NCBI GenBank assembly: GCA_964448725.1 | Contig: CAYVAJ010000001.1 | Span: forward strand, 7,525-71,524 | Direction of reading: 5' to 3' | Source: an uncultured Gammaproteobacteria bacterium | GTDB lineage: Bacteria > Patescibacteriota > Microgenomatia > Levybacterales > GWA1-39-11 | DNA: 64,000 nt | Shown here: positions 21,446-64,000 of the stretch, in pieces | Layout: each line of letters starts with the position of its first letter | Position numbering within the stretch: the stretch's first letter is position 1 | Translations under genes and position numbers: made by a program | Notes under the pieces: generated by a model | Database searches by the model: none | Told to the model about the DNA's origin: nothing | What the model saw: only the letters and a program-made list of their open reading frames with translations

Positions 21446-21554
21446 AGATGCATTATATCGCTGACATGCAACTCTGTCAAAAAGTTGACAAAAAGAGTTA
21501 GCAGTCGTAAACTCTAGACACGTATAGGCTGCTCTTTATGAATACAGGCGTGTA

Positions 21555-21640
21555 GGTCTGGTAAAGTTTGCCGGACAACGAGGAGAAGGGTTTTGATGTT
21601 CTATCAAAACAATCGGACCTCTGAATATTTATTCAGAGAG
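21555..21640 (+). promoter_or_regulatory. structured 5' leader of glmS (hairpins; weak glmS-ribozyme-like core motifs)
   Basis: About 400-nt untranslated region upstream of glmS. Hairpin GTCTGG..CCGGAC followed by AACGAGGAG ... UAUCAAAACAAUCGG. Perfect 9-bp hairpin CTCTGAATA-tt-TATTCAGAG at 21619..21638. Confidence 0.3.
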
Positions 21641-21849
21641 TATTTGCGGAAACCTTCAGGGTGTAGTACCATCCTAAAGCCTGCTGACAAACCATTATCG
21701 TAAGATTTTGTTGAAAACAGCAAGCACGTTACTCTCCTATACTCCAGAATTATTTACATTTGTTATTGATATTTGACTATTTGCGCACTTTTTATGTGTG
21801 TGTTTTAAAGAGCCAATAATCATTCAATGTTCATCAATATTTTAGTCCT

Positions 21850-51875: not shown

Positions 51876-53651
51876 ATGAACGATGTAGATACAGTAAAAC
51901 AAAAAATTGACCTCATTGACTATATTGGAAGATTCGTGGAACTTGCTCGTGCAGGAAGAAATTTTAAAGGCTTATGTCCCTTTCATAGCGAAAAATCCCC
52001 CTCATTTATGGTGTCTGCTGAACGACAAATTTGGCATTGTTTTGGCTGTCAAAAAGGAGGAGATGCCTTTTCATTTCTTATGGAATATGAAAAAATAGAT
52101 TTTGCTGAAAGCCTCAAAATACTTGCAAAAGAGGTGGGAGTTACTCTAACTCAACCTGTATACCGCACTGAATCAGAACAGAAAAAAGACACCTTATATA
52201 CAATTAATGCAACCGTTGCACAATTTTATCATTACTTACTCACTGAACATCCTGTTGGAAAACAAGCACTTACTTATTTAACTGAGGACAGGGATATGCC
52301 ATCGGGGTTGATTAATAAATTTCAGCTTGGATATGCTCCTCATAAATCGACTGCCTTAGTTGATTATCTGATAAAAAAACGCGGATATAAAACTGAGGAT
52401 ATACAAGCTGCAGGACTTGCCTCTGCTGGACGAGGAAAGCTTACTGATTTTTTTAACCATCGAATCATTTTTCCTATTCAGGATGTCAGAGGAAACATCA
52501 TCGCTTTTTCAGGAAGAGCACTGGATAACGAAACCTTGCCGAAATACATCAACACGAGAGAGACAATGATTTATAAAAAAAGTTCGTCACTTTTTGGGAT
52601 ATTTTTTGCAAAAGATGCAATGCGAAAAGAAAATAAAGTTCTGGTTGTCGAGGGAGAATTTGATGTGATTAGCAGTGTAAAAGAGGGCATAGCACATGTA
52701 GTAGCATTGAAAGGAACAGCATTAACAGAAGATCAGATAAAATTACTGAAACGATATGTCACCAAAGTATTATTTTGTTTTGATTCTGATCTTGCAGGAA
52801 CTGCTGCTCAAAAACGATCAATTGCATTACTGGAAAAAGAAGGTTTGTCAGCAGCAGTTATAGTCCCTCCTGAAGGGAAAGATCCTGATGAATTACTACG
52901 AGAAAACCCTAGCCTCTTTAAAAAGGCGTTAAAAACAGAAGTAAGCGTGTATGATTTTTTAATTGATTCAGCAAAACGTGCAGTAGATCCACATACTCCT
53001 GAAGGGAAAAAAGCAGTACTTGATGAAACATTACCCATGTTATCTCAGATTGATAATGAAGTCATAAAAGAGCATTATTTAAAAAAACTTGCTCAGACAC
53101 TGGAAACATCATATGAATCTGTCCTTCGTCAAAGTAATAAAACTATCTCTAAACCAAGAATAGTTCCTAATATTCCTAAAAAAGAAGCACGAACCCGAGA
53201 AGAAATTACCGAGACTTATTTTCTCGCACTTATGGTACAAGCAAAAAATCCTTATAATGCAATAACTCAAACAATGCCAATATTTGATGGTATAGAACTA
53301 ACATATCCTGCATATCAACGACTATGGACAGAGCTTCTTCAATTCACCCAAGAAAAAAAATCCTTTTCTTTAGATGAATTCTCAAAACAGCTTCCATCTG
53401 AACTCATTGAGACCTTTGACGCATGTTGTCTGGCACCACTTCCTGATTTTGAGACAAAAGAAGACTTTGAGAAAGAAATAAAGAAGGTCGCAACTGATGC
53501 AGCAACACTTGCAGTGCGTAATAAAATAAAATTAATCACTCAACAGGTTCAAGAGTTGGAAAAAAATCCAAATGATGATACAATGACAGAACTGCAAGCA
53601 GAATTTAGCAAGTATACCCAACGTCTTGCGGCAATTAAGCGTGCCTCTTGA
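51876..53651 (+). CDS. dnaG: DNA primase DnaG
   Basis: Zinc ribbon [13 protein letters not shown]...[24 protein letters not shown]...DSDLAG. 591 aa. Confidence 0.9.
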
Positions 53652-54775
53652 ATAGGCTTGTAGTTTTTTGTTACAATAGAGCAATGCCGCAACCCCAAAA
53701 TATTAAAAATTCCAAAATTGAAGAACTTCTAGCAACCGCAAAAAAGCGTGGATACATATCACAAGATGAAATCCTAACTGCGTTTCCTCAACCAGAAAAT
53801 CACATTCTTGAGCTTGATAGCCTCTATGATCAGTTGATTAAAAAAGAAATTGATATTTTTGAGACAGTCGAAGAAGAAAAAGATGCGCAGAAATCAATGG
53901 ATGATTTAGAGAAAGAACTAGAAGCTCTTAATATTATTCAGGGTGGGGCAGTTACAGATCCAGTTCGCATGTATCTCAAAGAAATCGGTCGTATTCCACT
54001 TCTTACTTTTGACCAAGAAGTTGACCTTGCAAAAAGACTTGAAGCAGGAGATATGTCAGCCCGCAAAAAGCTTGTTGAGTCGAACTTAAGACTCGTTGTT
54101 TCAATTGCTAAAAAATATGTTGGAAGGGGAATGGGTTTGTTAGATCTTATTCAAGAAGGAAATCAAGGATTAATCCGCGCAGTTGAAAAATATGATTGGA
54201 AAAAAGGTTTCAAGTTCTCAACATATGCAACCTGGTGGATTAGACAAGCAATTACCCGTGCAATTGCCGATCAAGCCAGAACAATTCGTATTCCAGTACA
54301 CATGGTCGAAAATATTAACCGATTCATGCGCGTTCAACGAAAACTCATGCAAGAGCTCGGTCGGCAACCTACCCCTGAAGAAATATCAGAAGTACTTGAA
54401 ATCGAACCAGATAAAGCTCGGGAAATCATCAAAATTTCGCAACAACCAACAAGTCTTGATACACCAGTCGGTGATGAAGAGGATTCATATCTTGGTGATT
54501 TTATATATGACGTCACTGCACCTACTCTTTTTGACACGGCTTCTCGCGGTTTATTAAAAGAACAGCTCAACTCAGTACTTGGCACACTATCTGACCGTGA
54601 ACGGCGAGTTATTGAAGAACGCTTTGGACTCCGAGATGGAAAACCAAAAACATTAGAAGAGGTTGGTCGTATGTTTGCAGTTACCCGTGAACGTATTCGC
54701 CAGATCGAAGCGAAAGCTCTCCGTAAATTAAGACATCCTTCTCGAGGTAACAAACTAAAAGACTATCTAGAATAA
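53648..54775 (+). CDS. rpoD: RNA polymerase sigma factor RpoD (primary sigma-70)
   Basis: Regions 1.2-4.2 present: [34 protein letters not shown], and region 4 [15 protein letters not shown]...TLEEVG...[13 protein letters not shown]. Confidence 0.9.
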
Positions 54776-54815
54776 AATTGACCAAAGCTGGTGTTCAGTA
54801 TATAATCCCCACATT

Positions 54816-56051
54816 ATGGCAATTGAACAATCTCCTCATACGAACGGAGCAGAAGATCAAGAGCGCATTCCTACAAGTCTTGCACTCATAGAAGATAATG
54901 AGCAAGAAATAAGCATCCTAATTGGACCACAAAATCCTTTACAGCCATCAGAACACGAGTATGTCGCTCATGTATTAAAAAATCTACAAGATAGAATTAT
55001 CGATGTGTCTGAAGAATCATCGTATGATATTGACGATGTAGGGTATATCCTTCGAGAAATTGGTAAATATCCACTTCTCACAGAACATGAGGAGAGAATT
55101 CTTACCTCATCATATCGCCGAATTAACCAGGAAATTAAAAATCTTATCAAAATCAATTCAGATGATGAATTTGAAGATAATAGTTTTGAAATAAACACAG
55201 ATACTATGTCTGATAAAGAAAAGGAGTTTTTCTTACATGAAGGGGATATAACAGAAATATCTGAAAAATACGAAAGCAAAGATTATTCTGAAGAAGAAAT
55301 AAAAGAAAAATTATCTATCCTTTACCCCTCTCGGAATATAATCAGAGACACACTCGTGAATCATAATCTGCGCCTCGTATTTAGTATTGCAAAAAAACAT
55401 ACTGGACGAGGAATATCTCTACCTGATCTTTTCAATGAAGGAAGTATTGGATTAATGTCTGCAATAGAGAGATTTCAACCTGAACTTGGATATAGATTCT
55501 CAACTTACGCTACTTTTTGGATACGACAAGGAATAGGGCGAAGCATAGCAGATACTAGCAGAACAATAAGACTCCCTGTTCATGAATATGATTTTTTTAA
55601 TAAAATAAGGAACACTGATTCTGCTCTATCTTTAAAACTCGGAAGGAAGCCAACCCTGGATGAAATCGCAGTAGAAATGGACGTACCGCAAAAAGAAATA
55701 GAAAAACGTTATAGTAGCGCAGCCCATAAATTAACCACCAGTATTCATACCATTGTGAATGACGAAAAAAAAAGTGAGTTGGGAAATTTCATACCAGATC
55801 CTGATGATCAAATAGAACACATAATTGAGAATGCAGATTATGAAACAATTATTAAGATCGCTCAAGATCTTTTAACTGAACGGGAGTTTGATGTTTTTAT
55901 GAGAAGAGTTGCAACACATCCATCTGAACGTGAAACACTAGACGATGTGGGAAAATTACATGGAATATCCAGAGAAAGAATTCGACAAATTGAGGTAAAA
56001 TCAATGAGGAAAATGGCAAAGGCTCTTAAAGGAAAAGGATACTCTCTTTAA
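54816..56051 (+). CDS. second sigma-70 family sigma factor (group 1/2-like paralog with acidic insertion)
   Basis: LRLVFSIAKKHTGRGISLPDLFNEGSIGLMSAIERF, FSTYATFWIRQGIGRSIAD (region 2). Region 4 [28 protein letters not shown]. 411 aa. Confidence 0.8.
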   Translation: MAIEQSPHTNGAEDQERIPTSLALIEDNEQEISILIGPQNPLQPSEHEYVAHVLKNLQDRIIDVSEESSYDIDDVGYILREIGKYPLLTEHEERILTSSYRRINQEIKNLIKINSDDEFEDNSFEINTDTMSDKEKEFFLHEGDITEISEKYESKDYSEEEIKEKLSILYPSRNIIRDTLVNHNLRLVFSIAKKHTGRGISLPDLFNEGSIGLMSAIERFQPELGYRFSTYATFWIRQGIGRSIADTSRTIRLPVHEYDFFNKIRNTDSALSLKLGRKPTLDEIAVEMDVPQKEIEKRYSSAAHKLTTSIHTIVNDEKKSELGNFIPDPDDQIEHIIENADYETIIKIAQDLLTEREFDVFMRRVATHPSERETLDDVGKLHGISRERIRQIEVKSMRKMAKALKGKGYSL

Positions 56052-56095: not shown

Positions 56096-56375
56096 TCCGC
56101 GATAGCTCAATGGTAGAGCAGGTCGCTGTAAACATAAATGCAGCTCTCGGTAGAAATGCCGAGATGATAACTGGGCTAATTCGGGGAAACCCACACCAAT
56201 AGGTGTTGGGCGATCCCGAGCTAAATTGATGCACAATCTAGTACATCATAAATGTGTAGAGACTATATACCCAGGATCTAAATCGAAAGACATGATCAAG
56301 AGATAGTCCAAGCCTTTTGGTAACAAGAGGAAACTTGTAACGACAAGGTTCTAGGTTCGAATCCTAGTCGCGGAG
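56096..56375 (+). tRNA. tRNA-Asn(GTT) interrupted by a group I intron between anticodon positions 35 and 36 (exons 56096..56129 and 56338..56375)
   Basis: Exon 1 TCCGCGA-TA-GCTC-AATGGTA-GAGC-A-GGTCG-CTGT. Exon 2 TAA-CGACA-AGGTT-CTAGG-TTCGAAT-CCTAG-TCGCGGA-G. Spliced anticodon loop CTGTTAA, discriminator G, U1-A72 as in bacterial tRNA-Asn. Confidence 0.75.
56130..56337 (+). ncRNA. group I self-splicing intron (208 nt, tRNA-anticodon-loop type)
   Basis: P1 GCUGU|AAACAUAAAU-GCAGC with U.G at the 5' splice site. P-like ATTCGGGGAAACCC and Q-like GATCCCGAGC. R-like GTAGAGACTATA (about 56255) and S-like AAGAGATAGTCC (about 56298) forming P7 GACUA/UAGUC. Terminal G (CTTG|TAA). Confidence 0.75.
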
Positions 56376-57932
56376 CCCATTAGTCGTTAATATACCCAAT
56401 TTGGCCTTGTTTAGGACATCTATAACTGGCTGATACTGTATATTAACGACTTTTTTGTTTTCAATTAGGATTTTTTCAAAGAAGAAGTTCAAATAGGCAC
56501 GTTTCGCATTAGTATCTGCTTCCTTATAGGTTGTGGCTATATCCCGTGTTAGTGCTAGTACATCATCAACAATTTTGACATCGATAGTACGGATTTTATT
56601 TATATCCGCTAGCTCTTTTTGAACCTCTAGCATTTCTGCATCAATTTTGGCGTTTAGAACCATAAACCTATCCCGTGTAATAGTTCCTTCTAGTAGCTCT
56701 TCCTCCAATCGTTCCCGCTTTATTTCTAGGGCATCTCTGCGGTTGTAGGATCCCTTTTTGGCTACTTTCACCCGCTCATTGGTATTCTCATATACCTTAC
56801 GGACATTACGCTTTACTGCTTCTATGAATTCTTGGCTAAATTGTAGCTTTTCAACTTCTTTCTCTACCTGTTTTTCCAATTCGTCTATTTCAACATAGCT
56901 AGTAGGGCATTTATGGACACGGCCAATGCCACTGCAATGATAATAGCCAATCCTGCCACCCCTGTTAGCAAATTTCTTCTCATTAACATGCCATTCTGCC
57001 GTGTATCGTTTATCACATAGATTGCAAATAGCCACACCTCGTAATAGGAAATTATGCTTCCGTTGCCTAATGCCAAAATCACCTTTTCTTCGTAGTGTGT
57101 ACTGGACTATATCGAATGTCTTTTTATCAATTAGTGGGATATGTTTTCCCATAGCTTCCATGCCTCCGTATCGCATCCATCCCCAATAAAAAGGGTTCTT
57201 TAAGATGTTGTGCATTAGTGAATAGGCTAATGGCCTTCCTGTTTTGCCTCGCACTCCACTATTGTGCAAGTATTCACGAACTGAAAATATTGAATGGCTG
57301 CCTGTTGCGTACATCTTAAATGCTTGGGTAATGAATGGTGCGGTTTGTGGATCAGGAACAATTATGCGTTTGTCATACGATCCCGTAGGGTTCTTATTGA
57401 CTACATTCATATAACCAACAATAGCTACTGATGGGTAATATCCCGCTTTGAATTTCTCGGCTGCTGTTTGTTTGACTTTATAACTGGTTAGTCTTGGTTG
57501 TATTGAATGGACTACCGCTATCATTTCGTCCATAACTTCGGATAGCGGATTATCATCCATGCTTACAGATCCTGTTAATGGAACAATAGTAGTACCGTGT
57601 TTCTTTAGAGTTTGTTTGATAAATAAATACTCATAGGTGTTTCTTGCTACCCGTGAACTATCCTGCACAATTACATAGTCAATATCTCCTTTTGCACATC
57701 TGGCTAGGATTGCTTGAAATGCGGTTCGTTTATCTAAAGATGTACCGCTAATGCCACCATCAACATATATTTCTTCTGCCAACTCACCACCCAATTCTTC
57801 AACCTTTCCTAATATCTTTGTCTTTTGAACATCTAAACTCAATCCGTTATCACGCTGGCCAACTGTGGAAACCCTGCCATATCCTAAACATCGGGGAATA
57901 TTATTAGTATGCTGGATAGTATCAATTCTCAT
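56364..57932 (-). CDS. large serine recombinase (integrase-type, resolvase N-domain + recombinase domain + zinc ribbon + coiled coil)
   Basis: LGYGRVSTVGQ catalytic serine motif, recombinase domain, CNLCDKRY...YYHC zinc ribbon, long coiled-coil C-terminus. Its 3' end overlaps the last 12 nt of tRNA-Asn. Confidence 0.9.
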   Translation of the reverse strand: MRIDTIQHTNNIPRCLGYGRVSTVGQRDNGLSLDVQKTKILGKVEELGGELAEEIYVDGGISGTSLDKRTAFQAILARCAKGDIDYVIVQDSSRVARNTYEYLFIKQTLKKHGTTIVPLTGSVSMDDNPLSEVMDEMIAVVHSIQPRLTSYKVKQTAAEKFKAGYYPSVAIVGYMNVVNKNPTGSYDKRIIVPDPQTAPFITQAFKMYATGSHSIFSVREYLHNSGVRGKTGRPLAYSLMHNILKNPFYWGWMRYGGMEAMGKHIPLIDKKTFDIVQYTLRRKGDFGIRQRKHNFLLRGVAICNLCDKRYTAEWHVNEKKFANRGGRIGYYHCSGIGRVHKCPTSYVEIDELEKQVEKEVEKLQFSQEFIEAVKRNVRKVYENTNERVKVAKKGSYNRRDALEIKRERLEEELLEGTITRDRFMVLNAKIDAEMLEVQKELADINKIRTIDVKIVDDVLALTRDIATTYKEADTNAKRAYLNFFFEKILIENKKVVNIQYQPVIDVLNKAKLGILTTNGLRD

Positions 57933-58430
57933 AATTCTCTAGTATTTCAATCATCGCTGATTAAACTCAGGCTGGATTCAGCTTAGGAAATTTAGCCGAT
58001 TTCTGTAAGCCTTTCTTATCTTTTGACAGTAGGAAATCAACCATCATTTCAACCCATTTCTCCGCCAACATATCTATGTCATCCTCACGGAGGGGAGTAG
58101 CATTTTTAAGTCGCGTGTTGTTGGTGTTCTTACCGATCTTCTTCATGTTAGTTACTGCTTGGATTAATATCCCTATTTACAAGAAATATGCGACTCGCGA
58201 ATGTATGCGGGGATGTGGGTATTGCGAAAAACTGACTCTTAGTAGTCTTACGATTCTGCCTTAAATGACTGTTAATGAGTCTTTTACAAGAATAAAGTGA
58301 GGAATTACATTGAGGTAAATAAACTATGCTATGTGTACATATGTATACATAAGTTATGTAAACATTTAGTCCATATAAGTGAGTAAACATAAGATTGTTG
58401 TTTGATGTAATGTTTGTAATAGGCATAGAA

Positions 58431-58796
58431 TTAGAAAGGTATTTCGTCAGGATCTATATCTTCAATTTTCGGCGACAAAGCATTTTCGATTAGCTCGTAC
58501 TCTTTGGGATGATAGTGTTCTTTAGCTTTTTGCTTGAACTCTTGGATTACTTGTGCTGTCAGGTTTTTGAATTTAGCCTCATCGAGAACAATAAAACTTT
58601 TTTGATTACCAAATTTACCAAGGGAGGGCATGGTAAAAAATAATTCAGTTTTGTTACCTTTCCAAAATATCGGACAAAATCTCACTTCCGCTTCTTGGTT
58701 GAGGTTCAGTGTGACAATCGCAAGGGGGTTTTCATCAATACCTCGAAATTTTATTTTTATTGTTAAGAAATCAAAAATGCTCATTTCCATATTCAT
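58431..58796 (-). CDS. hypothetical protein (element cargo)
   Basis: 121-aa ORF. No motif. Confidence 0.35.
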   Translation of the reverse strand: MNMEMSIFDFLTIKIKFRGIDENPLAIVTLNLNQEAEVRFCPIFWKGNKTELFFTMPSLGKFGNQKSFIVLDEAKFKNLTAQVIQEFKQKAKEHYHPKEYELIENALSPKIEDIDPDEIPF

Positions 58797-58812
58797 AAAA
58801 AAGACAGCTATT

Positions 58813-59070
58813 TTAGCTGCCTAGATATAAAAGATGCTTCAATTGTTTTAGTGATGCTTGGAATCTCGTCGGTTCAACTCTTGCCTCCATTTTGGAGAAT
58901 TTAGCCACAAGCCGTAAGCAATTATCAGTGTTAGGAAATAGAAAGGTTCCACGATTGGTTAAATCTCTATTAATTCCGCTTAGTTCAATGCCTTCTGTTA
59001 GAAGAAATGCTGCAAGTCCAATATCAGTTGTTTTGAAGAATTTATCATCCTGCATTTTCATAGTAACCAC
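58813..59070 (-). CDS. small hypothetical protein (phage-associated small-protein-like)
   Basis: 85-aa ORF. DIGLAAFLLTEG segment reminiscent of small phage/plasmid proteins. Unverified. Confidence 0.3.
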   Translation of the reverse strand: MVTMKMQDDKFFKTTDIGLAAFLLTEGIELSGINRDLTNRGTFLFPNTDNCLRLVAKFSKMEARVEPTRFQASLKQLKHLLYLGS

Positions 59071-59127
59071 ATTGTCCTAAAAATGCGGATGAATTCGAAT
59101 GAAACTTACAAACTCGTAAAATGCAGG

Positions 59128-59922
59128 TTAGATTGCGAGAAGTTTTTTATAGTAGGTTACGCCTTTTAGAATTCTGTTCTCGTCAGAACCAGAATCGGAA
59201 GAATCAACATTAGGATTATCCATCCATTCTGTTGCAATTTGAACATATGTTTTACCAGCTAAATGTTGCCAATACCATTCACGATATGCACGAATTTTGT
59301 TAACCTTATCAACACGTGGCTTGTAATAAGAAAGCTTTTTATCTGTTTTTAATAGGTATCTAGCAAACCTTACCTGTTCTTTGATCTCAACATCTGTAGA
59401 CGTTGGAGAAACGGAAATCACAACTTGCGGAAGTTGAAAGCTTCCCGTAGTGGTTTGTAACCAATCATTTTCAACAATATGGTATTTTGTAGGATAAAAA
59501 TAATCACCATCAACTGCACCACATAGTAATGCTTGAAGTACAGGTACTAGAAAATATGGTGGACGGCTAAAAATATAACATAGGATTACTGCATCTGTTT
59601 CTAGTTTTTGATATAGCTCTGCATCATTGTCCTCTAAATTAGTCAGGAATGTTTCATTTTGTTTTGCATATTCCTTCAAGCCCTTAATGTCCTCATATAG
59701 CGACATATCGAATCTACCACGATCAACACTATCAAAAGAGTTAATAACTTCATCGTATTTATCCAATGGTGCTAGTTTTAAGTGGTATTTATTCCTTATT
59801 TTTGGTAGCCATTCCAAAAATTCTGGTTTATCAAACAGTATGGATAGCTCTAGGAAATTTCTATCATTATCGGTTTGAACATCAATTTTTAGCCGTGCCA
59901 AATCCTCATACTTCATTTTCAT
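59128..59922 (-). CDS. hypothetical protein (element cargo)
   Basis: 264-aa ORF. No motif. Confidence 0.35.
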   Translation of the reverse strand: MKMKYEDLARLKIDVQTDNDRNFLELSILFDKPEFLEWLPKIRNKYHLKLAPLDKYDEVINSFDSVDRGRFDMSLYEDIKGLKEYAKQNETFLTNLEDNDAELYQKLETDAVILCYIFSRPPYFLVPVLQALLCGAVDGDYFYPTKYHIVENDWLQTTTGSFQLPQVVISVSPTSTDVEIKEQVRFARYLLKTDKKLSYYKPRVDKVNKIRAYREWYWQHLAGKTYVQIATEWMDNPNVDSSDSGSDENRILKGVTYYKKLLAI

Positions 59923-60733
59923 GCTAACTACATTTTACAAGAAAAAATGGATACACCCTATAGAGCCGAGCAATTTGATACAAAATCAGGTAAAATACTC
60001 ACTTAGTGGGGAAATTATGAAAATATTAAAGAGTGCCATTATCGAGCTTGTTAAAAAAAGCAGTATGCCCGATGAACTACATCAGAAGCTAGAAGATCAA
60101 GATTATGAATATGTATACGTAGCGCTCTTAAATGAAGGGCTGTTATCATTTGACGAATACAAGAGGTTACGAAAAGAATACTACGAAAGGAATAAATATC
60201 TCCCTATCATTCAAATAACATCTCCTCGCGCTTTTGGTGAAACTTGGGCAGAAAAACATATCACAGAAACTATTCCACAATTTGAGGCAGCACGTAACAT
60301 CAAGGGGTTAAAAACTCAAGGAATGTATGATGTTGTTTACAGGAAAGATGTTGAATCATTTGATGACGTTATAAAAATGGAAGTAAAAGCTGGAAGAGCA
60401 ATAGATAGGAGTATGCATAATATGCCTTACGATAGAAGGGCGCTAATAAGCGATGAGGTTGATAGAAAATTCGATATGAACTTTCAACAAATGAAGCCTG
60501 ATTGCTTCGATGTAGCCATTTTAATCGGTGTATGGACAGACAAGATAAGATATTGGGTATTTAGTTCAAATGAAATGAGAGAACACAAACATTTTTCATC
60601 AGGACAACATAGAGGCAACAAAGGATATGAGGGACAAATTCACATTAAGACAGAGAATTTGCAGGACTTTAGTCAATTCGAAGTAGAAGAAAGTGAAATC
60701 TTTGAGACAGTATTAAGAAAAGCCGGTAGATAA
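59921..60733 (+). CDS. hypothetical protein, candidate restriction endonuclease partner of the adjacent methyltransferase
   Basis: Convergent with the MTase and overlapping its 3' end by 21 nt. Possible PD-(D/E)xK-like SFDDVIKMEVK. Speculative. Confidence 0.3.
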   Translation: MLTTFYKKKWIHPIEPSNLIQNQVKYSLSGEIMKILKSAIIELVKKSSMPDELHQKLEDQDYEYVYVALLNEGLLSFDEYKRLRKEYYERNKYLPIIQITSPRAFGETWAEKHITETIPQFEAARNIKGLKTQGMYDVVYRKDVESFDDVIKMEVKAGRAIDRSMHNMPYDRRALISDEVDRKFDMNFQQMKPDCFDVAILIGVWTDKIRYWVFSSNEMREHKHFSSGQHRGNKGYEGQIHIKTENLQDFSQFEVEESEIFETVLRKAGR

Positions 60734-62617
60734 TTCTTTTTCAACAAAATCAATCTCTTCACCCGTCATTCCGTATAAATCATAAACTGCCTCATCTAGT
60801 ATATTTGTGGTTCTTTCGAATTCACCTTCACCATTGGACATCTCCGCTTTAAGAGCCATTTTTTCAATTTCTAATTGTTTTTCTTCGGAGACTAAAATTA
60901 ACGGCAATTGTTCTAAATTACCTCGTAGAACTTTCACTGTAAAGAATGTGGACGAATAATAGTATTGCATTAATTTAGAATTCAACAAAGCTAGTAAATA
61001 TCTTGCTCGCATACCTTTAATGTCAGGAATAACACCGTTTATGTTGTTAAGCATGAAGTATGATTTATCATCATATGCAAATATGAGTTTTGAACTAATA
61101 AATTTGTAGAGTAGTTTTTCTGGTGCTAAATAGTAGTCCTTTGGTGCTACTTGCTGGAGCTGCTCTTTGTCATAGATAAAATAATGGCCACTATGGTTAA
61201 TTCGAAATTTATTTACATCACTCCCAACCAGAATTGGGTTTTGCCTAGGATCACCATTAGTGGTTGTTAAGTGCTTCTTATTATTTCCTGTCACTATTCC
61301 AAGGAAGAATTTCGCATTGTCTTTAAGAAATCTAACATCGTTATCTTTTATTTTAGATTTTAACTTATCTGACATACCTGAATGATTAATGTTAAAAATA
61401 TTTTCATGCGTTAAATAGAATTTACTTTGCGGAACGGAGCTAAAGACATTATCTTCAGAAAGTGATTTAGATGTTCGTATATCATTATTTTGTTTCTTAT
61501 CATCATCGCTAGTCGTTTCAGCCACAATAATCAATGCTGGTGCATATACTTTCTTGAATACATCTCCACACACTTGTAGGGTTAAAATCTTACATCGTTT
61601 TAGAAGTTGTTGTCTGGATAACTGATGGTTTTTAATTTTAAGATAAGCTTCTGGTATCAAGAAACCCAACCTTGCACCATCTTCTTTTAGAAAATCCAGA
61701 GAACGTTCTATAAAAAGTGTGAATGTATTAAGCCCTACGCTTCCTATTTGGTAGTATTTCCTGAAATATCTTTTTTCTTCAGGTGATAGTTTTGCACCCC
61801 AAGGCGGATTTCCTATGATTACGTCGATTTTATTTTCAAATTTACTGAGTTGATCACTATTAAAAAGATCTGAGCTTTTTTTAAGAGTGTTTGAATTTAA
61901 CACTCTCGGAACAGTTGACGTAATGAATTCTGCACGTTTAAGCAAATTGAATTGTGTTAATAAACATGCAATCTCATCTAAATCGACACCTATCAAAGCA
62001 GAAAGTATAGAAGAGTACCTATCGTTTTTTTTAATAGCTGGTTTGTTGATCTTGTATAGTCTATTTAGTTCATTAAATGCTTCTAGTAGGAACTGTCCTG
62101 ATCCACATGCAGGATCCATAATTTGCTTGTCTTTTGTTATATCAAGGTTAATCTCTTTTAGTATTTGTCTAACCACTTTCTTTGGCGTATAGTACTGGCC
62201 GTCCTCTTTTCTTCCTAATTGGTTTTGAAGAAGTTGATATAAAAATCCGAGAAAATCATCGTTAGTATCGTGCAGATCGTATTGACTAAGTGTTTGCATT
62301 ATTTTTAGATCAATACCTTCTAGAAGATTTTTATTCTTTAACGGTGATCGCAGTTTCTGTGCTATTTCTTTTCCGTTTTTAATTGCCTCTATTGAAATCT
62401 CATCATTTTTGACAAATGTATTCAATATCGTTTCCATTACATTTGAAAGGATCAACCTGTCTGCATCTTTTCCGTAGACTCCCTCTTTAAGTAGATCTAG
62501 TTTTATTTTATGTAGTTCTGAAGCACATCTGATTAAGTGAGGATGTTCATTCCAATAATCATCAGGGACAATGTAATTATTTTCGTGTGATGTTAGATTA
62601 GATTTTTTATATCTCAT
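60713..62617 (-). CDS. N6-adenine DNA methyltransferase, gamma-class (Eco57I/TaqI-like) with C-terminal target-recognition domain
   Basis: Motif I MDPACGSGQFLLEAF precedes motif IV VIIGNPPWGAK (NPPW). About 350-aa C-terminal TRD. 634 aa. Confidence 0.85.
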   Translation of the reverse strand: MRYKKSNLTSHENNYIVPDDYWNEHPHLIRCASELHKIKLDLLKEGVYGKDADRLILSNVMETILNTFVKNDEISIEAIKNGKEIAQKLRSPLKNKNLLEGIDLKIMQTLSQYDLHDTNDDFLGFLYQLLQNQLGRKEDGQYYTPKKVVRQILKEINLDITKDKQIMDPACGSGQFLLEAFNELNRLYKINKPAIKKNDRYSSILSALIGVDLDEIACLLTQFNLLKRAEFITSTVPRVLNSNTLKKSSDLFNSDQLSKFENKIDVIIGNPPWGAKLSPEEKRYFRKYYQIGSVGLNTFTLFIERSLDFLKEDGARLGFLIPEAYLKIKNHQLSRQQLLKRCKILTLQVCGDVFKKVYAPALIIVAETTSDDDKKQNNDIRTSKSLSEDNVFSSVPQSKFYLTHENIFNINHSGMSDKLKSKIKDNDVRFLKDNAKFFLGIVTGNNKKHLTTTNGDPRQNPILVGSDVNKFRINHSGHYFIYDKEQLQQVAPKDYYLAPEKLLYKFISSKLIFAYDDKSYFMLNNINGVIPDIKGMRARYLLALLNSKLMQYYYSSTFFTVKVLRGNLEQLPLILVSEEKQLEIEKMALKAEMSNGEGEFERTTNILDEAVYDLYGMTGEEIDFVEKELSTGFS

Positions 62618-62627
62618 ACTTATAATT

Positions 62628-63233
62628 CTAACTAAAATTTCCTCTTATTAAACCGACGAATTTACCTCTGATTTCTAGTTGCTCTGGAATAATTATTTCA
62701 TATTTTGGATTTTTAGGTTGTAAGATTGTCCTGCCATTTTGTTGCCCTAATACTTTTAGCGTTGCTCCTTTTTCTGTAATACCCACAACTGTATCTCCTA
62801 TATCTGCTGTCATTTGATGCTTGATTAGAACAACGTCATTATCAAGGATTCCCATATCAATCATGCTATCTCCCTTTACTCTTAATGCATAATAGGACTG
62901 ATTAGAAGATAGCCTAATACTATTTGGAACTTGTATTGATTCTGCATTTTCAATCGGTTCTATGGGTTCACCGGCAGCAATAAATCCTAATAAAGGAATT
63001 GTTTGTTTTTGTGTGATTGGTGCTATACCTCTATTTTTGTGAGGATCACGTTTTAAGTATCCTTTTTTCTCTAATTCTTCGATGTAGTATTGAGCAGTAC
63101 TTAAGTTTTCAGTATCAAGAAATTTAGCCAATTCACGAAGAGAGGGAGCATATCCATTATTAGCCATGAATGAATTTATAAAATCTAATGCCTCTTTTTG
63201 CTTATCCGTTAATGGCTTGACTTTAATATCCAT
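62628..63233 (-). CDS. LexA-like repressor (winged-helix DNA-binding domain + S24 peptidase domain)
   Basis: N-terminal LTDKQKEALDFI...GYAPSLRELAKFL...LEKKGYLKR (LexA DNA-binding domain). C-terminal VKGDSM (Ser) and EIRGKFVGLIR (Lys) catalytic dyad. Confidence 0.8.
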   Translation of the reverse strand: MDIKVKPLTDKQKEALDFINSFMANNGYAPSLRELAKFLDTENLSTAQYYIEELEKKGYLKRDPHKNRGIAPITQKQTIPLLGFIAAGEPIEPIENAESIQVPNSIRLSSNQSYYALRVKGDSMIDMGILDNDVVLIKHQMTADIGDTVVGITEKGATLKVLGQQNGRTILQPKNPKYEIIIPEQLEIRGKFVGLIRGNFS

Positions 63234-63314
63234 ATTATGATAACTTTATGATAAATTTATAGTTGTGTCAAGTCGGTATAAATATATCAAAAGCATGAGG
63301 AGGTGAAGTAAAAA

Positions 63315-63545
63315 ATGGCAAAATCACAGCATGTAGTACCATACGGAAAAAATTGGGCAGTAAGAGGCGAAGGGAATAGTCGTGTTACATCCATTCGTAA
63401 CACGCAAACGGAGGCTTACGAGATTGCAAGACAGATAGCAATTAATAACAAATCTGAAGTCATTATACATCGCCCTAACGGACAAATAAGGGATAAGGAC
63501 AGTTTTGGCCGAGATCCGTTCCCACCTAAAGATAAAAGGCACTAA
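63315..63545 (+). CDS. DUF2188 family small protein
   Basis: HVVPYGKNWAVRGEG...TQTEAYEIARQIA...EVIIHRPNGQIRDKDSFGRDPFPPKD matches the DUF2188 pattern. Confidence 0.6.
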   Translation: MAKSQHVVPYGKNWAVRGEGNSRVTSIRNTQTEAYEIARQIAINNKSEVIIHRPNGQIRDKDSFGRDPFPPKDKRH

Positions 63546-63549
63546 AAAT

Positions 63550-64000
63550 ATGGATGAGTTGGTATTATCACAAGCAACAATCACAGGATTACCCCGTGGA
63601 TTACACGAGGGTACGGTATTGGATTTACAAAAGATAAATTATTTATTTGGTGCGAATGGATCAGGAAAATCACTAACCCTACGACTGATAACCAGGCAAG
63701 CCAAGGAACAAATACGACAAAAGGGGTTAAATCAGAAAGGATATTTTTCTCAATATATAACTGCCACACCACAACAAAGCTTTTATAACGATCACTTTCA
63801 AATTCTAGAAAAAACCGCAACTGAATTTGATCTAGAAAGTGATGATATTACTGGCGGAGCGTTTTATCAACATCTGCAAGAATACCCAGAAATTTTAATA
63901 AAAGTACGTGATGCATTGCAGAAGTATTTAGGTAGATATCCGAACGTAGTCCGTCGAGGAATTAACAATGTTATGACGTTTTTAAGAGAAGAGGAGGATG
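63550..64000 (+). CDS. P-loop ATPase (ABC/OLD/AAA_15-21-like Walker A), truncated by window end
   Basis: YLFGANGSGKSLTL Walker A 30 aa from the N-terminus. ORF still open at 64000. Confidence 0.5.
   Translation, partial: MDELVLSQATITGLPRGLHEGTVLDLQKINYLFGANGSGKSLTLRLITRQAKEQIRQKGLNQKGYFSQYITATPQQSFYNDHFQILEKTATEFDLESDDITGGAFYQHLQEYPEILIKVRDALQKYLGRYPNVVRRGINNVMTFLREEED

Follow-up and report, generated by a model that had tools for sequence, protein, structure and literature searches.

Large serine integrases such as those of phiC31, Bxb1, A118 and TP901-1, the Ccr recombinases of the staphylococcal cassette SCCmec and the serine integrases of streptococcal integrative and conjugative or mobilizable elements (ICE/IME) share one domain architecture consisting of an RVST-type serine resolvase domain, a recombinase domain, a Cys4 ribbon and a coiled coil. 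In these systems the integrase gene (int) adjoins one attachment (att) junction and the core common to attL and attR is short. Serine integrases are workhorses of genome engineering, and tRNA genes were regarded as tyrosine-integrase territory. In this study we analyzed a 64,000-nucleotide stretch of a genome from the candidate phyla radiation (CPR), class Microgenomatia (GCA_964448725.1, contig CAYVAJ010000001.1, positions 7,525 to 71,524; hereafter the window). It very probably carries a 9.1-kb non-phage integrative element, a 'mobile defence island', whose own large serine integrase placed it at the very end of a gene for tRNA-Asn. This integrase has the architecture of the known large serine integrases, and its gene likewise lies next to one att junction with a short core. 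Unlike them, however, it targets a tRNA 3' end in a CPR/Microgenomates host, and attP is located within the 3' coding sequence of int so that the C-terminus of the protein is templated by att and tRNA sequence. For serine integrases, tRNA-gene 3' ends as targets were described as something that 'has not been known', with 14/297 computational cases for which experimental proof is required (Mageeney et al. 2020, PMC7192596).

The same kind of integration is familiar from tyrosine-integrase tRNA islands (Islander/TIGER-type integrative genetic elements; P4-like, pSAM2-like), where the element enters at the tRNA 3' end, restores the gene, leaves a displaced repeat at its far end and carries int next to the tRNA. 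An overlap of attP with the 3' end of int is also known in some tyrosine-integrase elements. In contrast to these islands, the recombinase of the window is a serine recombinase of an unrelated family, crossover apparently takes place at the last few tRNA nucleotides, and the repeat is short, with 13 bp here and perhaps ~4 bp in sister elements. Compact size, a conserved backbone, a tRNA-adjacent position and defence slots have likewise been described for P4-like satellites, phage-inducible chromosomal islands (PICIs), Vibrio phage-defence elements, pipolins (PMC11551731) and tycheposons. Compared with these mobile defence islands the window element has a different backbone (orf59, DUF5659, orf264, LexA), always holds a restriction-modification (R-M) system in one slot, shows no recognisable replication or packaging module and belongs to a family so far limited to Microgenomates. 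A large serine recombinase is carried by 27/937 Prochlorococcus tycheposons (10.1101/2020.12.28.424599). Our literature search for serine integrases combined with tRNA-Asn, or for islands in CPR/Microgenomates, found nothing relevant. The element is best classed with known kinds, namely a site-specific integrative genomic island and a mobile defence island; new are the pairing of a serine integrase with a tRNA end and attP inside the integrase open reading frame (ORF), the backbone of its own and the CPR host.

Boundaries of the element and the empty site

A first-pass annotation of the window had proposed a serine-integrase island that starts at the tRNA-Asn 3' end and leaves the window at position 64000, being either a defence island or a prophage-like element. 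We extended the window by an exact protein match of the element's DNA methyltransferase (MTase) to Logan contig L001 (SRR7082976), which is 100% identical to window 59033-64000 and runs 1,642 bp further. At the left end the core of attL, CTAGTCGCGGAGC, occupies 56364-56376 and consists of the final 12 nt of tRNA-Asn plus one base. An exact second copy of this 13-bp direct repeat, attR, was read on L001 at window-equivalent 65465-65477, 1.47 kb past the window edge, and the two copies match at 13/13 positions. The repeat at the second boundary therefore defines an element of 9,101 bp, 7.6 kb of which lie inside the window, and the expectation of a further boundary beyond 64000 was borne out. 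The repeat is decisive because of its position, at which synteny with an empty-site genome resumes.

This genome, L013 (GCA_964542375.1), was located via P0123, the ortholog of a flanking gene. Its gene order is dnaG, sigA (95% identity), a second sigma gene, an intronless tRNA-Asn(GTT), 79 bp of spacer and a Polyketide_cyc2 gene. In the window lineage the Polyketide_cyc2 gene begins 67 bases after attR, and its first 33 residues correspond to P0122, whose contig of 205,428 bp has the same length as the contig with the 100%-identical integrase P0001. The sequence to the right of attR aligns with the spacer that follows tRNA-Asn in L013 (TTTTTGT.ATACC..., CCTTTGATATAATTA.CCAATGAA). After removal of the intron described below and of the element, the window is colinear with L013 through the tRNA, the spacer and the Polyketide_cyc2 gene. 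The empty-site comparison suggested in the first-pass annotation thus yielded a syntenic unoccupied site; an absence of both an empty variant and a second boundary, which had been named there as grounds for refutation, was not what we found. Moreover, two metagenome contigs, L011 and L012, carry the identical 37-nt tRNA half with no integrase and with unrelated sequence right after GGAGC; identity with both stops at the core edge.

In its composition the island is foreign to the host, in line with the shift in composition for which the first-pass annotation had proposed a check. Its GC content of 0.357 (host mean 0.3755, minimum 0.357) lies under all equal-size host windows, and its tetranucleotide distance to the host is 0.188 compared with a host maximum of 0.11.

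The tRNA gene at the insertion point had been recognised correctly as tRNA-Asn, but it is split by a group I intron. Exon 1 (56096-56129, plus strand; tRNA positions 1-35) has a partial Rfam tRNA match from 56096, ends in U35 and is homologous to the intronless tRNA-Asn of L013. The intron occupies 56130-56337 on the plus strand within the anticodon loop, between positions 35 and 36, with G as its 3'-terminal base, and is a host feature outside the island; Rfam reports it at 56120-56330 (RF00028, 61.2 bits, E=4e-13). Exon 2 (56338-56375, plus strand; positions 36-73) contains the 37-nt sequence also present in L005, L011 and L012. On the unspliced window ARAGORN reported no tRNA near 56364, because the intron splits tRNA-Asn(GUU) at 35/36. 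After in silico deletion of 56130-56337 it called tRNA-Asn(GTT), the flanks being read as two tRNA halves. Introns at site 35/36 of tRNA-Asn, with self-splicing demonstrated there, have been reported for Patescibacteria (PMC13011429, published 2026), and the window intron is of this type and predicted to be self-splicing. Among related loci the intron is present in the window, L005, L007 and L012 and absent from L006, L008, L011, L013, L015 and L018, and its presence varies independently of the element. The acceptor stem of tRNA-Asn is fully paired after integration, with its 3' strand coming from across the junction.

From this arrangement we propose the following course of integration. The attP site, overlapping the 3' end of the integrase gene, would be recombined by the integrase with an attB at the outermost 3' nucleotides of the tRNA-Asn(GUU) gene of the host, and the element would thereby enter the chromosome site-specifically. 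The original 13-nt tRNA end would be displaced 9.1 kb away and become attR. This does not disrupt the tRNA, as the displaced 13 nt are replaced by an identical stretch from the element. A B-arm of ~20 nt would reach the T-arm only, which would explain the use of intron-containing and intronless tRNAs alike.

In two samples the Logan contigs break off at the same window positions, 59033 (L001/L002, in the DUF5659 gene) and 56123 (L003/L004, in exon 1). We considered these breaks as alternative alleles and rejected this interpretation. They are probably branches of the assembly graph, because a sister species of the L005 type co-occurs in SRR7082976 and shares k-mers of at least 31 nucleotides.

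The integrase and its attachment sites

The integrase gene (56364-57932, minus strand) encodes a protein of 522 amino acids with matches to the Pfam domains Resolvase (PF00239, 1e-21, residues 16-164), Recombinase (PF07508, 5e-15) and Zn_ribbon_recom (PF13408, 1.5e-7) as well as to PHROG 95 (6e-82). The protein carries the motif YGRVSTVGQ and four zinc-ribbon cysteines (CNLC...C-x8-C), followed by a heptad-rich E/K region of coiled-coil type. These matches agree with the initial identification of a large serine recombinase from its catalytic motif, zinc ribbon and coiled coil. The reported 12-nt overlap of the ORF with the tRNA gene also stands, as the TAG stop codon (56364-56366) lies within exon 2 and the att core. 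Integration and excision do not alter the ORF, as its stop codon belongs to the repeated core.

About 90 full-length homologs of the integrase with 50-88% identity were found; one (P0001) is 100% identical to that of the window, and the named sources are all Woesebacteria, Daviesbacteria or Microgenomates. The fusion of the integrase gene to a tRNA end is a property of the whole family and is kept across integrases of 53-88% identity. The 3' end of the gene overlaps tRNA-Asn in L005 (80% identity, intron-containing), L006 (74%), L008 (53%) and L015-17 (75%, 11 contigs). In L021/22 (63% identity) it overlaps tRNA-Gln(TTG) instead, at 11560-11631 of L021 and 4140-4211 of L022, in an element with a complete Type I R-M system. 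We found no LexA within 10 kb of the L021 element. The change from tRNA-Asn to tRNA-Gln is, to judge from these loci, a natural switch of target specificity.

The element-side att arm (P', 56377-56398) lies inside the integrase coding sequence and comprises an 11-nt spacer and the motif TAATATACC (56388-56396), which encodes an LGIL peptide. Nine loci, among them the tRNA-Gln variant, show without exception the geometry AGC (tRNA 72-73 plus one), 11 nt, TAATATACC. Of the LGIL-anchored homologs 56/78 read into the tRNA end: 21 stop within the equivalent of the acceptor stem and 35 read on. The sequence '...(W)LPRxDSNxxP' of the read-through C-termini results from translating CCA, acceptor stem and T-loop in reverse.

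We reconstructed attP as GAGGACTAGTCGCGGAGCCCATTAGTCG... and attB as ...TTCGAATCCTAGTCGCGGAGCACCATCTATTT; the diagnostic junctions are ...AAAGAGGACTAGTCGCGGAGCCCATTAGTCGTTAATATACCC... for the attP circle and ...GGTTCGAATCCTAGTCGCGGAGCACCATCTATTTAGCC... for the restored attB. Minimal att sites of large serine integrases measure about 40-50 bp, with imperfect dyad symmetry and a 2-bp crossover in the core that attL and attR share. In the reconstructed sites a dyad scan returned GGGTAT...ATACCC centred on a single base. The first-pass annotation had suggested looking for a core dinucleotide at about 56360-56380. The 13-bp core lies there, but because the scan gave no clear centre we do not claim a crossover dinucleotide. 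Crossover is likely to occur near GAGC, tRNA positions 71-74, because attR and attL of L005 disagree one base left of this motif (CGCAGAGC against CGCGGAGC) and the putative attR of L015 shares GAGC only. Tail-end repeats of the tRNA of at least 11-14 nt were absent within 10 kb in L006, L008 and L015-17.

Further loci bear traces of other integrations. In L018 (12380-12450) a relic P' arm (GGAGC-CAAGCGGCACT-TAATATACCCAA) without an integrase comes after tRNA-Asn. The integrase now present is found at a distance of 0.73 kb. Its arm is degenerate, and its C-terminus is extended by a segment (KTFEDFRLVQQIRE...) that is also present in five homologs; scattered GIY-YIG ORFs of ~83 aa occur at the same locus. 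In L007 (11560-13925) a 2.3-kb insert bracketed by the 9-bp sequence GGGGGAGCC is located between an intron-containing tRNA-Asn and a family integrase. It contains ORFs of 246 aa and 292 aa together with a C-terminal remnant (110 aa) of another serine recombinase, which ends in ...DWLPRLDSNQ, and it indicates a tandem accretion or decay of elements at one att core. The relic arm of L018 and the L007 insert with its recombinase remnant indicate that the tRNA-Asn site was used repeatedly and by more than one integrase lineage.

Backbone genes, defence cargo and genomic context

For the family comparison we used 8 elements (window, L005, L006, L007, L008, L015, L018 and L021). Tblastn and gene tables showed that int, orf59, a repeat-rich non-coding region, orf121 or a SpoVG-like gene, DUF5659 and orf264 form the common backbone. 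LexA is present in 6/8 elements, and orf48 and DUF2188 in fewer. To judge from these loci the window element belongs to a previously undescribed family that exchanges defence cargo.

Two positions hold this cargo. Slot (i), between orf264 and lexA, contains an R-M system in all 8 elements, and these systems are mutually unrelated. In the window it consists of a predicted Type II restriction endonuclease (REase; 59921-60733, plus strand; PADLOC PDLC03414 REase_II, 3e-40) and a gamma-class N6-adenine DNA MTase of 634 aa (60713-62617, minus strand; PADLOC MTase_II, 4e-99). The MTase matches the Pfam families N6_Mtase (1.6e-22), TaqI_C (6e-26) and Eco57I (5e-17) and carries an NPPW motif. The two genes are convergent with a 21-nt overlap, as the first-pass annotation had described for this MTase and a candidate nuclease. 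At the same position we found a beta MTase with an REase (2e-54) in L005, a Dam-like protein with a HinfI-type REase and a beta MTase in L006 and L015, two C5 MTases with an REase and a C protein in L007, a C5 MTase with an REase (8e-72) in L008, a PvuII-like system in L018 and a complete Type I HsdMSR system in L021.

Slot (ii) is the position beyond lexA. The Walker-A ATPase ORF that is cut by the window edge is here the N-terminal part of an OLD-family ABC-ATPase/TOPRIM nuclease (63550-64000, plus strand), which continues to window-equivalent 65091. On L001 the complete protein has 513-528 aa and matches AAA_21 (1.4e-15), AAA_15 and OLD-like_TOPRIM (24.7 bits, with a cutoff of 23.2 bits); in PADLOC it matches AriA (3e-18), Old (1e-15) and GajA. 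It may be a class 1 OLD, a fused PARIS AriAB or a retron-Eco8-like protein. Directly upstream lies the gene of the DUF2188 protein (63315-63545, plus strand; Pfam PF09954, 1e-22), which had been identified as such before, matches the PADLOC defence candidate PDC-S16 (2e-33) and is common to the window and L005 elements only. In L007 slot (ii) holds a cyclase (2e-173) of a cyclic-oligonucleotide-based antiphage signalling system (CBASS) with a 1TM effector, in L008 a CBASS cyclase with E2 and SAVED-HNH proteins (4e-132), and in L015 a Schlafen/AlbA_2 protein with a HEPN protein. L005 carries four proteins without family assignment at this place. Their co-oriented genes (L005 1427-5047, corresponding to L024 5291-8914) encode 171, 474, 324 and 216 aa, and they received no PADLOC, PHROGs-type or Pfam assignment except that the 324-aa protein gave a sub-threshold hint of TOPRIM/DUF3226. 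The cluster is a candidate new defence system because relatives hold OLD or CBASS at that exact position. With at least two recognised anti-phage systems predicted in one cluster, the window element is a defence island, and its relatives swap predicted defence systems at fixed positions, or hot spots.

The gene lexA (62628-63233, minus strand) encodes a LexA-type repressor with the Pfam domains LexA_DNA_bind and Peptidase_S24 that is predicted to be autocleaving. It scores 153 bits for the TIGR00498 equivalog (cutoff 111), and the cleavage motif AAG (IAAGEP), the serine (GDSM) and the lysine (TLK) are all intact in the sequence. The first-pass annotation had rightly recognised a full-length LexA-like repressor and had counted it as cargo. 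We assign it to the backbone instead, since homologs occur in the elements of L005, L007, L008, L015 and L018. The divergent promoter region of lexA and DUF2188 (63234-63314) contains an inverted repeat (63246-63261 / 63277-63292) as a candidate operator. This repeat is conserved in L005, and a different one overlaps a TTGAC element in L007 and L008. An S24-peptidase repressor with a cleavage site, a Ser/Lys pair and a divergent promoter with inverted repeats is also found in lambda CI and SXT SetR, but the window repressor is a LexA equivalog, unlike the CI/SetR type. Because the cleavage site and the Ser/Lys dyad are intact and the divergent promoter carries inverted repeats, autocleavage of LexA after DNA damage may derepress excision or defence genes, which would link the element to the SOS response.

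The gene orf59 (57967-58146, minus strand) lies directly upstream of int, has positional homologs in L005, L006, L007, L015, L018 and L021 that share the motif D(I/V)D.LA(E/K)KW(V/C)EM, and is by its position a candidate for an excision/directionality factor, on which large serine integrases depend for excision. The gene orf121 (58431-58796, minus strand) was aligned with its positional homologs, of which that of L021 has a Pfam SpoVG match (1e-7). Neither orf59 nor orf121 had a family match in Pfam, PADLOC, PHROGs or NCBIfam. They are followed by the gene of an 85-aa DUF5659 protein (58813-59070, minus strand; Pfam PF18903, 7e-12), conserved in L005, L006, L007 and L009, and by orf264 (59128-59922, minus strand), a family-specific gene encoding a C-terminal helix-turn-helix (HTH). 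The predicted model of orf264 has a mean confidence (pLDDT) of 81.5 and a sigma-r4/DeoR-type HTH as its sole structural match, and the protein is probably a DNA-binding regulator or initiator.

Upstream of orf59-int lies an AT-rich, repeat-rich non-coding region (58147-58430) with palindromes and direct repeats. It shows 73% mean column identity with L005/L006/L015, the sister elements carry iteron-like AGTAACTAT repeats, and one block of the region, AATAGGGATATTAAC, is conserved and similar to the att-arm motif. This region could be a regulatory region, an operator array or a replication origin. At the other end a 48-aa ORF, orf48 (window-equivalent 65105-65251), was read on L001 after the OLD-family gene. 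It is followed by a block of ~150 nt (window-equivalent 65280-65400; L001 ~240-360) that is conserved in the window, L005, L015 and L017 and contains GGTTATATTAAC, the inverse of the att-arm motif TTAATATACC, ~110 nt inside attR. The block may bind the integrase as an accessory site, or it may be a small gene.

On the upstream side tRNA-Asn is adjoined by two tandem sigma-70 genes (window 53648-56051). The primary sigA is conserved (98% identical in L005, 95% in L013), and the second sigma paralog evolves fast, being only ~38-40% identical between the window, L005 and L013 genomes. The linkage dnaG-sigA-(sig2)-tRNA-Asn was found again in several Microgenomates loci. A whole-window Rfam scan also returned a glmS ribozyme/riboswitch match at 21536-21735 (RF00234, 43.6 bits; gathering score 37). 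The records of L005, L006, L007 and L010 bear the titles 'uncultured Gammaproteobacteria' or 'Pseudomonadales' and that of L008 the title 'Spirochaetia'; these labels are probably generic or wrong. We disregarded the label 'uncultured Gammaproteobacteria' of L005-L007 because Microgenomates are indicated by synteny and by every named homolog.

Mobility of the element and its meaning for the host

The interpretation as a mobile defence island has to be weighed against several observations that speak against it. The 13-nt repeat by itself is only moderately improbable, as 2/300 shuffles reach this length. The dyad symmetry of the att sites is weak or ambiguous, so that the crossover dinucleotide cannot be placed from the scan, and attR of L015 is unrecognisable beyond 'GAGC'. 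The attP junction of an excised circle was absent from the viral contigs searched. No isogenic empty site was found in the L005 species, where L025 is occupied and L026 truncated, both being uninformative. No transfer, replication or recombination directionality function could be assigned to the proteins of the element, orf264 showing an HTH only. Besides, backbone identity between the window and L005 (50-81%) is about equal to that of the flanking host genes (60-98%). This parity fits vertical co-divergence from one ancestral insertion, so that recent mobility in the lineage is putative at most; L005 is also more closely related to the window than L013, the genome with the empty site. The data are fully compatible with a single ancestral insertion, subsequent vertical inheritance and in situ exchange of cargo.

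In its strict form this alternative describes a fixed relic, a single insertion that predates the split of the window and L005 lineages, is now a vertically inherited and effectively immobile defence locus, and has its cargo swapped by homologous recombination between conserved backbone genes instead of by excision and integration. We regard such a relic as possible though rather unlikely. The similar identities of backbone and host genes fit it, as do the occupied sites in the window and L005 next to the empty outgroup L013, the mismatch in attR of L005, the failure to find attP or a circular form in the viral contigs and the lack of identified transfer genes. However, the integrase is not truncated and keeps every catalytic and zinc motif, attL and attR of the window match perfectly, and the attP arm is conserved across the family under a dual coding constraint. 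Moreover, the family occurs in differing genomic backgrounds with a switch to tRNA-Gln, and scars and tandem arrays indicate repeated integrations. The mobile defence island may still be mobile.

A cryptic prophage or a phage satellite of the PICI/P4 type, packaged by a helper phage and using the uncharacterised ORFs for replication or for hijacking of packaging, is improbable. It would account for the integrase, the S24 repressor of LexA/CI type, the small size and the repeat-rich non-coding region, and satellites are known to carry defence hot spots. Nevertheless, PHROGs and Pfam gave no match to virion structural, packaging or lysis genes in the window element; its PHROGs matches are the integrase, the repressor and families of unknown function only. 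No primase, helicase, terminase or capsid match was obtained in any of the 8 elements, in which several ORFs are without assignment, and relatives of the integrase or orf264 were absent among 2.9 million IMG/VR contigs. The lack of phage-gene matches and of IMG/VR relatives therefore favours a non-phage integrative defence island. Of the two characters that had been considered at the outset, the defence island is supported by the R-M system, the OLD-family nuclease and PDC-S16, and the prophage-like one is not. A recombinase that acts as resolvase or invertase in local switching and overlaps the tRNA by coincidence can practically be dismissed; the first-pass annotation had named a resolvase of a local inversion system as a possible objection. 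The N-terminal domain is common to resolvases and invertases (PHROG 125 'DNA invertase', 1e-17), but enzymes of such systems are small (~180-200 aa), have an HTH at the C-terminus and act on inverted or res sites, and the 522-aa protein with its Recombinase, Zn-ribbon and coiled-coil regions has the architecture of a large serine integrase. In addition, the flanking repeats are direct rather than inverted and lie 9.1 kb apart, an empty site exists in L013, and the tRNA fusion is conserved across the family.

A wider interpretation of the mobile defence island is more speculative, and we put it forward tentatively. Large serine integrases of the CPR might form a broad clade, extending to ~35-40% identity and including the L007 relic lineage, that is specialised on tRNA 3' ends, with attP embedded in the 3' coding sequence of the integrase and with Asn targets and at least one switch to Gln. 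The elements moved by these integrases might be LexA-controlled, SOS-responsive carriers of defence genes and the main route of immune exchange in Microgenomates. The unannotated genes of slot (ii), such as the four-gene cluster of L005, would then be new defence systems, and the LexA of the element may be the only SOS repressor of the cell.

CPR genomes are small, with ~1 Mb, and CRISPR-poor, and few genetic tools are available for these bacteria. The clade of the window integrase may provide landing-pad tools for them. With its fixed, readable att geometry at a tRNA end that is conserved universally and with the switch from Asn to Gln it is also a system for studying how the target choice of serine integrases evolves, and its attP arm, which doubles as coding sequence for the integrase C-terminus, clearly exemplifies how a DNA-level constraint shapes a protein tail. 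The defined hot spots offer a principled place for seeking new defence genes. For their hosts the family indicates that CPR genomes keep a compact, modular and exchangeable immune cassette, which always comprises R-M together with OLD, CBASS, Schlafen-HEPN or other systems, on a mobile backbone.

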